Below, piece by piece: positions 31,447 through 36,628 of a stretch of DNA of 64,000 nucleotides. The notes under the pieces are model-generated. The model had not been told where the DNA came from, ran no database searches, and saw nothing but the letters and a program-made list of their open reading frames with translations. The translations under genes and the position numbers were made by a program. The DNA comes from Escherichia phage AV110. Each line of letters opens with the position of its first letter. The first letter of the stretch is position 1. The stretch lies in sequence record OR352940.1. The stretch is one strand, 5' to 3'.

Positions 31447-31672
31447 CTCGGTCCCATGATTTGGCCATTAATTCGGACATAAATTCTTCAATGCGCGTTT
31501 CTTTAGATGGACTTTCACTATTAGAGACCGCAAGTTTGTAATCTGCAATAGGACAGAACATATCAAGGTCCATATTAAGGACGTCTTTGATTTTTTCTTC
31601 TGACACATCTTTATCGTATGTGTACAGATAACTATCACATGATTCTGATTTAATGTAAATTGCTATACTCAT
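31436..31672 (-). CDS. Hypothetical acidic protein
   Basis: ORF track 31436..31687 trimmed to MSIAIYIK; ATGA overlap with upstream gene. Confidence 0.45.
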   Translation of the reverse strand: MSIAIYIKSESCDSYLYTYDKDVSEEKIKDVLNMDLDMFCPIADYKLAVSNSESPSKETRIEEFMSELMAKSWDRDDE

Positions 31673-32160
31673 CTCAAATTCCTGCATTCGGTAATAAAAC
31701 GTTCAACTTCATTATTCTTGGCTTTTATCTTGTCTTTATGTTCTTGTAAACTACTTTTAATAAGATTAATAATGATGGCGGCGGTACCGCCGCCAATGAT
31801 GCCACCAACAACACTTATTATACTAGATGCTAATAAGATAGCAATAATATCAACAAAACCGAAAGAACTCACCTTAGTACTAAAAAACCATACCGACGGT
31901 ACAAATATAATCCATCCTGTTATCCATTGGCACTTATTGAAAAACTTTTCAAGCTCAGCTTGAGTTGTTCGTATTACTTCATCGATAGGTTGATATCCAT
32001 TAATGTATCTGTTCACAATAATACCTGCTGGCTGGTCGATTTTAAATTCTTGGCAAATATGTTTCACTAAGTAGAATGGACAGGATGTCCATTCTACTGA
32101 ATAGTATGAAATACCTTCGTTGCCATCGTCTATATTAGACCAATATGTTTTGTTAATCAT
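31669..32160 (-). CDS. Hypothetical membrane protein with C-terminal ..RFITECRNLR tail
   Basis: 163-aa ORF; hydrophobic segments in the C-terminal half. Confidence 0.5.
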   Translation of the reverse strand: MINKTYWSNIDDGNEGISYYSVEWTSCPFYLVKHICQEFKIDQPAGIIVNRYINGYQPIDEVIRTTQAELEKFFNKCQWITGWIIFVPSVWFFSTKVSSFGFVDIIAILLASSIISVVGGIIGGGTAAIIINLIKSSLQEHKDKIKAKNNEVERFITECRNLR

Positions 32161-32846
32161 TACCAGCCTTCCATAGGGAATTCCAGATAAACTTGGGCAT
32201 TGACACGAATTTCATTGGTAATCTTTTTAACTCGGTCTGTATTACGAGATACACGTCCGAACCAACGCCATCCATTACTAATTGCACGAGAACCAGTGTG
32301 CCATGTTTGCCAATCAAACTGAAGAAGAGTACGATCTGGAGCTTCCCATTTCTCTAGTTCACCTTTTTCGATTTTTTCGAGGACTTCTTTGTGCCACTGG
32401 CGATAGATAAGTTCGCCATCAGGAATCTGACTGAACTCTGCAGTTCCTGTTGCAAAATGAGTAGGACACACATCAGCGTTAACAAGACCAAGAATGTGTT
32501 CAGACAAATAGCGAGGATTGTCATAGTCAGGTTGTCCTGCAGTAATAAAGTGTTGACCAACTGGAATATCCGGGCGTGGTACATCGTCATGGTGATAACC
32601 TGGGATAGCAGGGTACCAACCAGGCATCAGCATGTGGACTCGTGAATCAAATACAACCTGGTCGGTGTTCCAATCATCTGGCAAGTTCATGATGAAGCTG
32701 CGAGTAATAGGACCGCCGTTATTATAAGCAAATTCTAAACTACAGTTGAAGAACATAGGTTCGTTTTTAATCTGGTCGTTTTTAATCGCATGAGCAAAAC
32801 CACCTACTGCACGAGCTTGACTATTAAACACTTTAGAACTATTCAT
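32160..32846 (-). CDS. Hypothetical protein (weak HxD..H..RxS pattern)
   Basis: 228-aa ORF; motif assignment speculative. Confidence 0.5.
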   Translation of the reverse strand: MNSSKVFNSQARAVGGFAHAIKNDQIKNEPMFFNCSLEFAYNNGGPITRSFIMNLPDDWNTDQVVFDSRVHMLMPGWYPAIPGYHHDDVPRPDIPVGQHFITAGQPDYDNPRYLSEHILGLVNADVCPTHFATGTAEFSQIPDGELIYRQWHKEVLEKIEKGELEKWEAPDRTLLQFDWQTWHTGSRAISNGWRWFGRVSRNTDRVKKITNEIRVNAQVYLEFPMEGW

Positions 32847-32847
32847 A

Positions 32848-33153
32848 TTATTTTCCTCGACATTCTTTAATGAAATTTTCTAGATTGGTAGATTCAATAG
32901 CTTTTTTACGAGCTTCTGCGTGTTCTTCTTCGGACAATTTACGTTTATAATTGACCCAGACATTATTGTCGAAACCAGACGTGGCATATAATAACAAAGC
33001 TCCAACGAATAGCAAAAATGGTGATAAAAATATACAACCAGGAACACCATCCATACTGTAAGCCTTTTGTAATACTGCAACAGAAAGAGTTGCGTAAAAA
33101 GGTGATGCAAGTATTGTTAAAAGACCAATTCGATTGGTTTCTGTTAATTTCAT
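32848..33153 (-). CDS. Hypothetical membrane protein with C-terminal ..ENFIKECRGK tail
   Basis: 101-aa ORF with two hydrophobic segments. Confidence 0.5.
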   Translation of the reverse strand: MKLTETNRIGLLTILASPFYATLSVAVLQKAYSMDGVPGCIFLSPFLLFVGALLLYATSGFDNNVWVNYKRKLSEEEHAEARKKAIESTNLENFIKECRGK

Positions 33154-33223: not shown

Positions 33224-34180
33224 TTATTTGAAAGGTTTTACCATATGGAAATTTTGTTTGAAACGTTTTACGTAATCGTCATGTCCTAAGCTTTGGTACA
33301 TACTTACAACTTTGCTGTAGTTTTCCCAGGCGTATTCACGGAACCAACCGGAGGTGATGCTTGTGCAGACTTTTTCTAATGCCATCATGAAACTGGCTTC
33401 AGGGTTAATTTTAAAGTCATTAGGAATCTGAGAACGTTCTAATGCTAGTACACATGATTCTTCATATACACCGGCCAATTTGACCATTTCTGGTAACGAT
33501 TCGAACTTCTCGCGTGAGGTCATGACTTCAGAACCGTCTTTCATATAAAATGTATACGCTGGGCGGTCTGTTAGCGCAATGGCTTCGTGAATAGTATCAT
33601 GGTCATATGTATAGATGTCATCTTTAAAGAACGCACTTTTAGAAGTGTCAAGAACTGGGTGAGCATAGTTCAAGGTTTCTTTCTGGCGTTTCAGCATAAT
33701 TTCAGTAAGTTCATCGTTCAGTGTAACACCTTTACCACGAAGATACTGAATATGGTTCATAGTCTTTAAAAAGAATGGATTATTTTTCTTGAAACGATGA
33801 GACATCTTAATTGCAAGACATATCTCAGGAGTTGCCCAGTAAAACCCGTTCAAACGGTCTTTAGACAAATTTTTCTCGGCGTATTTTAAAAGGTCATAAG
33901 AAGACGTGAAATCTTCAGGAGTGAGTTCACCGACTAATTCACGGACATTAGTGATTGCCGGAACAATATATGCTTCAAAATGAGTTTCGCGTCCATTATG
34001 GAAGCATTTGAAAACTTGGACATCAGGGTTATCTTGGTGAACATATACACCCATCATTTGATTTTTGAATGCATTCCAAGAACATTGGTCCGCAATAAAG
34101 TCCCAATCACTATTTTTGATAGCGCTAGAATCAATAAGACCGTGATAGTGAAGCGCACGAGAACCAATAACTAACATCAT
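33224..34180 (-). CDS. Hypothetical protein with possible nucleotidyltransferase-like N-terminus (GS..DWD)
   Basis: 318-aa ORF; N-terminal VIGSRALHYHGLIDSSAIKNSDWDF loosely fits the NTase pattern. Confidence 0.45.
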   Translation of the reverse strand: MMLVIGSRALHYHGLIDSSAIKNSDWDFIADQCSWNAFKNQMMGVYVHQDNPDVQVFKCFHNGRETHFEAYIVPAITNVRELVGELTPEDFTSSYDLLKYAEKNLSKDRLNGFYWATPEICLAIKMSHRFKKNNPFFLKTMNHIQYLRGKGVTLNDELTEIMLKRQKETLNYAHPVLDTSKSAFFKDDIYTYDHDTIHEAIALTDRPAYTFYMKDGSEVMTSREKFESLPEMVKLAGVYEESCVLALERSQIPNDFKINPEASFMMALEKVCTSITSGWFREYAWENYSKVVSMYQSLGHDDYVKRFKQNFHMVKPFK

Positions 34181-34208: not shown

Positions 34209-34460
34209 TTAAATTTCACGACATGCGATATCATATTCATCCCAGAGGTCGTCATGTGAAGCCTCTACCAATGGAACGATTGTACCGTTTATGTCTTCAT
34301 TATAAGGACAAATTGTACAGTGCGCATCTTCGAATCGGATGCCTTTGTGTTCAGATTTTTTATAACGCATATCGAATATCTTTGCAAACTTTTCACGAGT
34401 AATAGTTTTAGCAACTACTTCGGTTCCGATACTTTCGTAATAAATCATTGTGGACTCCAT
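34209..34460 (-). CDS. Hypothetical protein
   Basis: 83-aa ORF. Confidence 0.45.
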   Translation of the reverse strand: MESTMIYYESIGTEVVAKTITREKFAKIFDMRYKKSEHKGIRFEDAHCTICPYNEDINGTIVPLVEASHDDLWDEYDIACREI

Positions 34461-34468
34461 TTGTTTTG

Positions 34469-34506
34469 ATAGGACTACTATAACATAGCCCTATCTTGTT
34501 GTAAAC
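34469..34506 (-). promoter_or_regulatory. PeSL-type early promoter
   Basis: Plus-strand gataggactactataacatagccctatcttgttgtaaac. Confidence 0.55.
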
Positions 34507-34510
34507 TGTT

Positions 34511-34708
34511 TTAGCAAGAATAACTAGATGATACCCAGCCTTGAACAGTGATACTATTGTGGGATAATGAGATCGCGTCCTGGATATTCAGACCTGCGTT
34601 ATCTTCAATCCATAATGTAACTTCTTCGCGTTCTTCTGTTGCAATTTGGAACAGGTTTTCCAGGGCAGCTACTGCCGTACGTACAGCACAATCTAATTCA
34701 CGAGACAT
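34511..34708 (-). CDS. Small protein, WVSSS..C-tail family member 1
   Basis: 65-aa ORF ending GWVSSSYSC. Confidence 0.45.
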   Translation of the reverse strand: MSRELDCAVRTAVAALENLFQIATEEREEVTLWIEDNAGLNIQDAISLSHNSITVQGWVSSSYSC

Positions 34709-34717
34709 ATTGTTTCC

Positions 34718-34990
34718 TTAGCAAGTGTGAGAAGATGCAACCCAACCACCAGTTTCGAGGCTCAGGTTGTAGTCGTATTGGTAAACGTCAGCCCATTCAG
34801 CATAGCCATTTTTTGTACAACGTTCAAGATCGGCTTTAAGATGTCCGGGTGAATGATAGGTTCCACCCATACCATAAGCTGGGTACAAGTTGAATGTTGT
34901 GTTTTGTTTATCAGCAATTTCTTTGGCAGCCTCAATAGCTGCATAGATTTTTGCTACAGCTTCAGCCAGTTCGGTTTGTTCTTTAGACAT
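34718..34990 (-). CDS. Small protein, WVSSS..C-tail family member 2
   Basis: 90-aa ORF ending GGWVASSHTC. Confidence 0.5.
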   Translation of the reverse strand: MSKEQTELAEAVAKIYAAIEAAKEIADKQNTTFNLYPAYGMGGTYHSPGHLKADLERCTKNGYAEWADVYQYDYNLSLETGGWVASSHTC

Positions 34991-34999
34991 AATGATTCC

Positions 35000-35305
35000 T
35001 TAGCACAACGCAGAAGACGAAACCCAAGCACCTTCAGTAATAACGTATCCATTACCTTCACGCTTAACATCGCCGCCATTATTTTCAATTTCATCTTTCA
35101 TCCACTGGGATACGATTTCACCCTTAGGATAATAAGTACGACCGCTACCATAATCACCTACAGAAAATGATACGGCATATTGGTCTGCGATCTTTGTTGC
35201 TTCTTCTTCGATACGTTCAGCTTGATTCAGAAGTTTATAAATTGCATCTGAAGCGGATTTGGCATCATTAAACTCTGGTACTTTAATTTCAATAATCTTA
35301 CTCAT
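35000..35305 (-). CDS. Small protein, WVSSS..C-tail family member 3
   Basis: 101-aa ORF ending GAWVSSSALC; central region homologous to member 2. Confidence 0.5.
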   Translation of the reverse strand: MSKIIEIKVPEFNDAKSASDAIYKLLNQAERIEEEATKIADQYAVSFSVGDYGSGRTYYPKGEIVSQWMKDEIENNGGDVKREGNGYVITEGAWVSSSALC

Positions 35306-35661
35306 TTTCTACATTCCTTAATAAAGTTTTCGATTGTTTCATTTTCACGTCTAGCTAGGAGTTCATTATAACTAATCATTTGAGAAGCGTAAACCTTTTT
35401 ATTTTTCTTGTTGTGGTTTATAAAACCGTAGTAAAAATAGACTACAGTACAAAATGATGCGATGGATGCAAAGGCTTGGGTATACCGTAAGTCCTGCCAT
35501 TGGTCTGTGAATCCACCAGTGTTCCCTATAAATCCTAACACAACGCCGTCAATAAGAAATCCAACTAATCCAAAGGCAAATCCCATGCCAATACTCATAA
35601 TAAAAATTAGAATGTTCTCACCAAGAGAAGGCCATACGGTTAAGAGTTGTGGCTTTTGCAT
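35302..35661 (-). CDS. Hypothetical membrane protein with C-terminal ..ENFIKECRK tail
   Basis: 119-aa ORF with hydrophobic segments. Confidence 0.5.
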   Translation of the reverse strand: MQKPQLLTVWPSLGENILIFIMSIGMGFAFGLVGFLIDGVVLGFIGNTGGFTDQWQDLRYTQAFASIASFCTVVYFYYGFINHNKKNKKVYASQMISYNELLARRENETIENFIKECRK

Positions 35662-36035
35662 CTTATCTCCTTAACGAATTCCATAGCTTCTTCATATTCA
35701 TACTTTTTAACAGCTTCATCATACTGAGCTTGGGCTTTTGCGCACTGAACTTTCCACTCACGAACTCGAGCTCTGTGATGACGGCCTTGGTGCCAATATC
35801 CTACCCAATTAATAGGCATTAATAAAAACGGTACAATAAGTGGTGCGACGAACATTAATGAAAACGCTGCATCGGACGATATAACTTTATTGGAATCTAA
35901 AACAGCTCCTATAATCATAAAGATTAAAAATGCTAAAGCTAAAATAGGGCCAAATAGTACTTCGTTTGGGATTAATTTACGTTTGTATTCGTATGCCCAG
36001 GGCTTACTTGGCATGTATAGGGTTGGCTTTGACAT
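35640..36035 (-). CDS. Hypothetical membrane protein
   Basis: ORF track 35640..36065 trimmed to MSKPTLYMP at 36035. Confidence 0.45.
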   Translation of the reverse strand: MSKPTLYMPSKPWAYEYKRKLIPNEVLFGPILALAFLIFMIIGAVLDSNKVISSDAAFSLMFVAPLIVPFLLMPINWVGYWHQGRHHRARVREWKVQCAKAQAQYDEAVKKYEYEEAMEFVKEIRCKSHNS

Positions 36036-36606
36036 ATTCTCTACATTCCATAATAAATTGCTCAAGGATTAAATTGTTAGTGAAATTAGGACTAACAACC
36101 ATAGTTTCATAAAGCGCATCAATAGCACTTAAAGCATCAACTCTTTTAAGCAAAGGCTTGCCTTCATACATAGTTTCAGAATCGACGATTAAAGTGAAGT
36201 AGTATTTTTTATTATTGACCAGAACTTCTGTATCAATATAAAACATGTTAGACCTTAAAAGCTTATCTCTAAAACCATAATAATCTTTAGAGCGTTCGCT
36301 GATATATTCCCATTCGGTGTTTAAACAACAAACAGACCATGTAGGAGCAACGAAATCGGTGAATCTAATATCATGGTCTGCAACTAGTTTAGCAATAGCT
36401 CCGATATCATGAATCATAATACCTGGGGCTAATAAAGATTTTCTGCTATGGCTAGCTGTTTTCTCAGTAGTCTCATAAGAAGACGACCAGTACCATTTAC
36501 GCCCAGTTGCAACATATCGTAATGAATCAACTAAAGACGTAGGTGGATTTACCTTATCTCGGAACTCTTCGAACATTGAGTCAATATCATTATTTTGGTT
36601 TCGCAT
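36004..36606 (-). CDS. Hypothetical protein with C-terminal ..EQFIMECREY.. motif
   Basis: ORF track 36004..36627 trimmed to MRNQNN at 36606 (SD AAGGAG). Confidence 0.5.
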   Translation of the reverse strand: MRNQNNDIDSMFEEFRDKVNPPTSLVDSLRYVATGRKWYWSSSYETTEKTASHSRKSLLAPGIMIHDIGAIAKLVADHDIRFTDFVAPTWSVCCLNTEWEYISERSKDYYGFRDKLLRSNMFYIDTEVLVNNKKYYFTLIVDSETMYEGKPLLKRVDALSAIDALYETMVVSPNFTNNLILEQFIMECREYVKANPIHAK

Positions 36607-36628
36607 GTTAACTCCTTTATTATCCAAA

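Follow-up and report, generated by a model that had tools for sequence, protein, structure and literature searches.

A C-terminal Cys tail defines a family of small phage proteins encoded almost always beside one uncharacterised enzyme-like gene

Three small genes of Escherichia phage AV110 share a C-terminal tail

Three consecutive small ORFs in the T4-like Escherichia phage AV110 (record OR352940.1) appeared to share a Ser-rich C-terminal tail ending in Cys, and we wondered whether this tail is a genuine protein feature and what it might be for. To address this, we analysed the 64,000-nucleotide stretch that carries the genes (hereafter, the window). The three ORFs (65, 90 and 101 aa; here ORF1, ORF2 and ORF3) lie on the minus strand and end in QGWVSSSYSC, GGWVASSHTC and GAWVSSSALC, confirming what the initial annotation had observed. 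The tail Ser codons differ between the copies as had been stated there (TCA TCT AGT, GCA TCT TCT and TCG TCT TCT), and each ORF has an AAGGA Shine-Dalgarno sequence upstream of its ATG. In a six-frame translation of the whole window, W[VIL][SA]SS occurred only three times, each time at one of these C-termini, and only 5 of 184 ORFs of at least 50 aa end in Cys.

ORF2 and ORF3 are paralogs over their whole length (BLASTP E=2e-6, 30% identity over 73 aa). In contrast, ORF1 shares only the tail region with them (BLASTP E=4e-4 and 2e-3), and HHalign aligned just 14 columns, the last ones of the family. The description of the three genes as a triplet of paralogs is therefore not supported as worded, as ORF1 is only demonstrably related through the tail.

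The window is an RB69-like Mosigvirus sequence; the segment is 98.9% identical to Escherichia phage APCEc01 and other Mosigvirus (RB69-type, T4-like) genomes. The genes lie in the accessory region between lysozyme e/e.2 and e.3-e.6/the tRNA genes. In the RB69 reference, the ORF3 ortholog is split into two ORFs (139c and 138c). Every deposited annotation of these genes reads 'hypothetical protein'. The triplet and the larger gene downstream appear to be separate transcription units, and expression of the small proteins is inferred from conservation and ribosome-binding sites only.

Table 1. Features of the small-gene cluster and its surroundings (window coordinates)
Feature	Position	Strand	Description	Family or RB69 counterpart
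ORF3	35000..35305	-	101 aa; N-terminal helix, YGSGRTYYP core, tail GAWVSSSALC	RB69ORF139c+138c; phrog_899 (E=1.3e-22)
ORF2	34718..34990	-	90 aa; paralog of ORF3, YGMGGTYHSP core, tail GGWVASSHTC	RB69ORF137c; phrog_899 (E=5e-19)
ORF1	34511..34708	-	65 aa; minimal member, no YG.GG core, tail QGWVSSSYSC	RB69ORF136c; phrog_4882 (E=1.2e-36)
ORF3 tail-coding segment	35000..35032	-	G-A-W-V-S-S-S-A-L-C-stop; TAA stop is part of the TAAGGA Shine-Dalgarno sequence of ORF2	
ORF2 tail-coding segment	34718..34750	-	G-G-W-V-A-S-S-H-T-C-stop; TAA stop is part of the Shine-Dalgarno sequence of ORF1	
ORF1 tail-coding segment	34511..34543	-	Q-G-W-V-S-S-S-Y-S-C-stop	
Partner gene	33224..34180	-	318 aa; putative enzyme; DUF7277 (residues 2-101; E=1.4e-27, 96.7 bits) plus DUF7275 (residues 120-305; E=4.9e-79, 265 bits); Pfam cut-off 27 bits	RB69ORF134c
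KVCTSITSGW codons of partner	33344..33373	-	Residues 270-279; includes Cys272	
G6-S7 through D25-W-D27 codons of partner	34100..34165	-	Pol-beta-nucleotidyltransferase-like motif, supported at motif level only	
Intervening ORF	34209..34460	-	83 aa, contains a CTIC motif; not part of the module in distant phages, membership doubtful	phrog_3723
Promoter-like site	35365..35393	-	Inside the e.3 homolog, upstream of ORF3; a related record annotates a T4 middle promoter at the same place	
Early-promoter-like site	34477..34505	-	TTTACA-17-TATAGT, just after the ORF1 stop; a related record annotates a terminator here	

The tail defines a large family without a described function

To determine how widely the tail occurs, we searched a profile of ORF2, ORF3 and close relatives with HMMER against 1.84 billion representative proteins. 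This returned 203 clusters (50% identity) at E<=1e-3, nearly all of 70-120 aa, with the match running to the last residue of both profile and protein. Typical members have an N-terminal helix, a YG(M/S)GGTYYP core, an acidic linker (26% D+E) and the tail. Of 192 members, 176 end exactly in Cys, 8 have one further residue, and 8 do not end in the tail, several of them being evidently truncated or frameshifted. Among 132 Cys-terminal representatives at 50% identity or less, W at -8 is present in 131, S at -5 in 131 and S at -4 in 129, position -6 is S, A or P, and the W-to-C spacing is 6 in 130. All three window ORFs fit this pattern, G-x-W-x-[SAP]-S-S-x-x-C-COOH. As the tail is kept across representatives with unrelated DNA, selection acts on the peptide and not on an overlapping DNA signal, as the initial annotation had proposed.

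Conservation of the tail outlasts similarity of the protein body. In addition to the ORF1 family, which lacks the YG.GG core, proteins of different size carry the tail in Pseudomonas phiPsa374-like loci, and about 6% of members repeat W.SS.C-like motifs in their linkers. Shorter terminal variants also exist (WDSSSC, WVQSSC, WNSSDC and NWDSSTC). Two long proteins from the profile search were checked as possible fusions, but they carry neither the YG.G core nor the Cys tail and we treat them as spurious; no fusion between a tail protein and the partner described below was found.

None of the three ORFs matched Pfam, NCBIfam or PADLOC, there was no PDB fold match, and the PHROG families that they do match are of unknown function. 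Literature searches on the RB69 ORFs, on the DUF and PHROG families and on the motifs returned nothing relevant, and a paper on RB69 DNA modification concerns other genes. This agrees with the initial annotation, which knew of no described function for the tail. Within the libraries and papers searched, we found no record linking the small-protein families to each other or to the neighbouring gene.

Tail genes lie beside a DUF7277/DUF7275 gene

Inspection of the loci of two distant members revealed the same DUF7277/DUF7275 gene just downstream, which in the window corresponds to the 318-aa ORF located 331 bp downstream of ORF1. To examine this association from the partner side, we fetched 30 IMG/VR loci with the 318-aa protein, of which 27 carry 1-4 tail ORFs immediately upstream on the same strand. 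Conversely, from the small-protein side, all 30 loci with enough DNA carry the partner within 2 kb downstream. When fetched loci and the window were pooled, the strict tail (W.[SAP]SS..C$) was present in 142 of 1116 ORFs within 3 kb upstream of the partner gene, against 3 of 10022 other ORFs, and we read those three as boundary cases that are also adjacent to the partner gene. As many loci come from related T4-like phages, we counted clusters rather than loci where possible. A larger, profile-based sample found 195 relatives of the partner in IMG/VR, of which 80 were kept, forming 19 clusters at 60% identity: 14 clusters have a strict tail, 4 have variant tails and 1 has none within 4 kb.

To search independently of the protein body, we scanned IMG/VR with a DNA pattern for the tail alone. 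Of the 33 stretches returned, two were chance matches with an internal stop. The new contigs inspected all had the partner adjacent, and the stretches with no partner detected sat too close to the end of their fetched locus, apart from one metagenomic lineage that has a tail protein but no partner within 10 kb. A further exception is phage CC31, which has no tail gene within 6 kb of the partner. Nonetheless, the pairing, with tail genes within about 3 kb of a roughly 310-aa DUF7277/DUF7275 gene and usually upstream of it on the same strand, holds in T4-like phages of Escherichia, Klebsiella, Enterobacter, Aeromonas and Acinetobacter, in Phapecoctavirus, Otagovirus, Pseudomonas phiPsa374-like phages, a Stenotrophomonas phage (where the tail genes lie downstream) and jumbo phages, and in phage-like contigs binned into bacterial MAGs.

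An invariant Cys of the partner covaries with the Cys tail

We next compared partner proteins from different loci. Those beside Cys-tail genes always contain KVC[TS][SG]ITSGW, with the Cys at position 272 in window numbering, and all 80 partners of the second sample keep KVC[TS][SG]ITSG. In contrast, a sister clade from phages of Streptomyces, Gordonia and Vibrio (including KVP40-like phages) and from many metagenomic contigs has I, V, A or L at this position, lacks R129 and H174 in the five phage members aligned, and has no Cys-tail gene nearby. Instead, in 26 of 32 loci it is flanked by 1-3 copies of a different small-protein family ending in G[WY]Y.S[YW].G..[WY]DG...EV.P..K.ITV[YF], which shows no detectable homology to the Cys-tail family and has no Pfam match. 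Over 34 partner clusters, Cys272 occurred with a Cys tail in 18 and without a tail in 1, whereas 15 clusters had neither and none had a tail without the Cys. Although this is what direct Cys-to-Cys chemistry or contact would predict, the correlation is essentially one deep clade split and thus counts as a single evolutionary event.

The partner has many invariant polar residues that look like an active site (G6 S7 D25 D27 E69 K125 H128 R129 H174 H194 D195 H198 E240 E241 E248 R249 C272). Its N-domain carries a hhhGSxA...[DE]xDhh...hEh pattern like that of Pol-beta nucleotidyltransferases: in 18 diverse sequences G6, S7 and D27 are invariant, position 25 is D or E, and E69 or an equivalent is present. 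The motif is also found in the Cys-less clade, and a few depositors label homologs 'putative nucleotidyltransferase'. However, no similarity test supported this label. Pfam searches at E<=10 with 14 members gave no nucleotidyltransferase or HD hit, PDB profile searches with the full protein and with the N-domain, as well as NCBIfam, gave nothing significant, and HHalign against AadA/ANT(3'') (query sequence 99.6% identical to aadA) gave a probability of 0.1%. Likewise, despite the invariant H128, H194-D195 and H198, HHalign of the partner against a phage HD hydrolase gave a probability of 0.3%. A single-sequence AF2 model of the partner was unusable (pLDDT 38.7). The nucleotidyltransferase label is therefore a lead resting on a motif only.

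A model in which the tail engages the partner

Overall, these data suggest that the three ORFs belong to a large, uncharacterised phage family of small acidic alpha/beta proteins which, together with the DUF7277-DUF7275 gene, form a conserved two-part module. That Cys-tail proteins function together with the DUF7275 protein we consider likely. More tentatively, and with somewhat less than even confidence, we propose that the tail is the element through which each small protein engages the enzyme-like partner, and that the small proteins are its protein substrates or thiol-bearing co-substrates. In this model, the Trp would anchor the tail, and the Ser hydroxyls and/or the terminal Cys thiol would react at a site that includes Cys272 and the His/Asp/Glu cluster of the partner. 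The one to four paralogs with different bodies would then direct the same chemistry to different ends, possibly different host targets. Whereas the family, the conservation of its tail, the gene association and the clade-level Cys-to-Cys correlation rest directly on our analyses, physical contact, catalysis, covalent modification and the biological role are inferences from them. The interpretation given in the initial annotation, that the tail is a recognition tag, for example for a modifying enzyme, a protease, or a metal or lipid attachment, is partly supported: the idea of a modifying enzyme now has a concrete candidate in the DUF7277/DUF7275 gene and a Cys-to-Cys clade correlation, but the tail is not predicted to be a floppy tag, as AF2 places it in ORF3 (pLDDT 91.9) as the last beta-strand (93-96) plus a short helix (97-100) of a folded domain.

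This prediction leaves room for the view that the tail is conserved, at least partly, for folding, with adjacency to DUF7275 reflecting a shared pathway or shared inheritance and not tail recognition. In its favour, pLDDT is about 90 for residues 91-100 (74 for the last residue), and W94, S97, S98 and C101 are invariant together with core residues A40, Y52 and G55. However, we consider a purely structural role unlikely, as the tail persists where the YG.GG core is absent and in larger proteins, is duplicated in linkers, and switches type together with the partner clade; a strictly terminal Cys with fixed spacing, in proteins with no other conserved Cys, is not a typical folding requirement. 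The main alternative, possible but less favoured than our model, is that the small proteins are non-covalent regulators, inhibitors or adaptors of the DUF7275 protein (antitoxin-like or target-recruiting), whose tail would plug or dock at the active site, for example with the Cys thiol ligating a catalytic metal. Small genes upstream of a larger enzyme-like gene resemble toxin-antitoxin and enzyme-inhibitor layouts, several paralogs with different bodies suit adaptors, the invariant His/Asp/Glu cluster could bind a metal, and individual paralogs are sometimes lost, as in the split RB69 ORF3 ortholog and the frameshifted ORF2 of mar005P1. On the other hand, the five module proteins had no PADLOC hit better than E=0.01 and no toxin-antitoxin family match, the phages are lytic, up to four partners per enzyme is unusual for an antitoxin, and metal capping alone does not explain the covariation of the two Cys residues.

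Chemistry unrelated to DUF7275 appears improbable. S-x-x-C at the exact C-terminus, which all three ORFs have, is the topology used for AviCys rings in epidermin-type lanthipeptides, and lanthionine or aminovinyl-cysteine-type Ser-to-Cys crosslinking, C-terminal Cys decarboxylation by a host flavoenzyme, lipidation, metal or persulfide carriage, or a degradation signal could be envisaged. However, no dehydratase, cyclase, HFCD flavoprotein or radical-SAM domain was found among the ten neighbouring proteins tested in this phage or in distant loci, a 'sulfurtransferase' label on a neighbouring gene in phage JK36 has no Pfam support, 8 of 192 members have one residue after the Cys, and the constant DUF7275 neighbour would remain unexplained. 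Finally, chance or a DNA-level signal, that is, a translational-coupling junction, is excluded. Although two of the tail stop codons are part of the next gene's Shine-Dalgarno sequence (Table 1), and a different junction motif in the window (FIKECR) does overlap ribosome-binding sites, the Ser codons differ, the ORF1 tail is not followed by a coupled gene, the peptide is conserved across hundreds of clusters with unrelated DNA and gene order, and the tail is rare among control ORFs.

Comparison with known systems and biological implications

Compared with known systems, the module fails on at least one defining feature tested in each case. GlnD/PII likewise pairs an enzyme, a uridylyltransferase/uridylyl-removing enzyme, with a small signalling protein whose conserved hydroxyl-bearing motif is the site of action, and the logic would be similar if the GS...DxD motif of the partner reflects a real nucleotidyltransferase. 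However, the partner shows no sequence or profile similarity to nucleotidyltransferase or HD families, and the small proteins here are phage-specific, number one to four, and carry the motif at the extreme C-terminus with an obligatory Cys. MNT-HEPN and MenAT/AbiE toxin-antitoxin modules also combine a small protein with a roughly 300-aa protein that has an N-terminal GS/DxD-type motif and a helical C-terminal domain, and in MNT-HEPN the transferase AMPylates its partner. Here, there was no DUF1814, HEPN or NTase Pfam match and no PADLOC match, the module is found in lytic phage accessory regions with multiple paralogous partners, and the tail is unlike any antitoxin motif known to us. RiPP precursors with C-terminal Cys chemistry (epidermin-type AviCys; scaffold peptides such as TglA-Cys) share the genetically fixed, strictly C-terminal Cys, preceded here by Ser at -4, and the idea that a carrier polypeptide presents its C-terminus to an enzyme. 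In contrast, the tail proteins are predicted folded domains of 65-175 aa and not leader-core peptides, no LanB/M/D, PEARL or radical-SAM genes are nearby, and the neighbour is a DUF protein. What is already catalogued are the PHROG and Pfam families, of which the window proteins are clear members but which carry no function. We assign the module to the general kind of an enzyme with dedicated small-protein partners recognised through a terminal motif.

A bolder reading, which we regard as doubtful but not excluded, is that this is a previously unrecognised and widespread phage enzyme-substrate system, in which a DUF7277/DUF7275 enzyme with a catalytic Cys would act on the W-x-S-S-S-x-x-Cys tail of dedicated small carrier proteins, for example by Ser nucleotidylation, by a Cys-Cys thiol relay, or by building a small molecule on a protein scaffold. 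A sister enzyme clade would use a second, unrelated carrier family, and phages would use the system early in infection to rewire or disarm the host. The setting in an accessory region with early/middle promoter-like sites, and the location of the partner beside NAD-salvage genes in three unrelated phages, are compatible with host takeover or counter-defence but prove nothing.

The module is present in at least 733 deposited phage genomes by tblastn of the partner and in 195 IMG/VR loci, including the long-studied model phage RB69 and phages of Klebsiella, Acinetobacter, Pseudomonas, Aeromonas and Stenotrophomonas hosts, and no function, fold or publication could be found for either component. 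A strictly C-terminal, almost invariant ten-residue motif tied to one neighbouring gene makes it unusually testable whether phages carry an unknown protein-modification or thiol-relay chemistry. If it proves to be a host-takeover or counter-defence device, the module would also explain part of the hypervariable e-to-tRNA accessory region of T4-like phages.

Neighbouring genes and transcription units around the Cys-tail triplet

The three Cys-tail genes lie in an accessory region. Five minus-strand ORFs, at least two of which are predicted membrane proteins and which include the e.3, e.4 and e.5 homologs, share a near-C-terminal [EN]F[IV]xECR motif. The codons for this motif (for example ATT AAG GAA TGT AGA) lie directly before, and in part form, the ribosome-binding site and start of the next gene; it may be a protein motif, a junction signal, or both. 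The same motif recurs in phage CC31 (fetched locus L016). The e.5 homolog, located two genes upstream of the triplet, also contains an internal ...GRKWYWSSSYETT... stretch that resembles the W-x-S-S-S-Y part of the ORF1 tail, although this resemblance is probably due to chance. Phage JK36 and a few other records label the e.4 homolog 'sulfurtransferase'. However, as this protein showed no Pfam match at E<=0.01 and looks like a small membrane protein, the label appears unfounded.

Variation in the pairing of Cys-tail and DUF7275 genes

Whereas Cys-tail genes pair with DUF7275 proteins that carry the invariant Cys, a Cys-less clade of DUF7275 proteins (from actinophages, Vibrio KVP40-like phages and others) is flanked by 1-3 copies of a second uncharacterised small-protein family, which ends ...G[WY]Y.S[YW].G..[WY]DG...EV.P..K.ITV[YF]. 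This second family has no Pfam match and shows no detectable homology to the Cys-tail family. The one clear exception to the pairing was found in two 168-kb metagenomic viral contigs (L146/L147), which encode a 68-aa protein ending TGGWQSSSYNC, with no DUF7275 gene within 10 kb on either side. In Acinetobacter phage Acj9, Vibrio phage K412 and Stenotrophomonas phage Ps15, the DUF7275 gene lies within a few kb of NAD-salvage genes, namely a ribose-phosphate pyrophosphokinase-like gene together with a nicotinamide/nicotinate phosphoribosyltransferase gene, and in phi-pp2 a Sir2 gene is nearby.

Features in the window and in the fetched phage loci (L numbers)
Coordinates	Strand	Feature
window 31663-32211, 32848-33153, 35302-35661, 35640-36065, 36004-36627	-	Five ORFs with the near-C-terminal [EN]F[IV]xECR motif, including the e.3, e.4 and e.5 homologs
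window 36004-36627	-	e.5 homolog with the internal tail-like stretch
L001 7541-7915 (= window about 35640-36014)	-	e.4 homolog labelled 'sulfurtransferase' in some records
window 34209-34460	-	83-aa ORF between the triplet and the partner gene (phrog_3723)
window 34460-34510	-	Early-promoter-like site directly after the ORF1 stop
L068, L069, L076-L078, L080-L110 (ORFs next to the DUF7275 gene)		Second small-protein family beside Cys-less DUF7275 proteins
L067 5783-8437; L077 210-3163; L079 1-675		NAD-salvage genes near the DUF7275 gene (phages Acj9, K412 and Ps15)
L078 6660-7325		Sir2 gene (phi-pp2)
L113 2235-2541 (RB69 69734-70040)		Split ORF3 ortholog in RB69
L146/L147 10001-10207		68-aa Cys-tail protein of the exception lineage

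Possible paralog loss and organization of the module

In the RB69 reference genome, the ORF3 ortholog is split into ORF139c (71 aa) and ORF138c (33 aa), and in phage mar005P1 the ORF2 ortholog (protein P0049) is frameshifted. Single paralogs therefore appear dispensable, or these are sequencing errors. The ORF located between the triplet and the DUF7275 partner gene has a C-x-x-C pair (HCTICPY); it is conserved in enterobacterial T4-like phages but absent from the module in distant phages. Directly after the ORF1 stop, where a related record annotates a rho-independent terminator, lies an early-promoter-like site (TTTACA-17-TATAGT), indicating that the triplet and the 83-aa/partner genes are probably separate transcription units.
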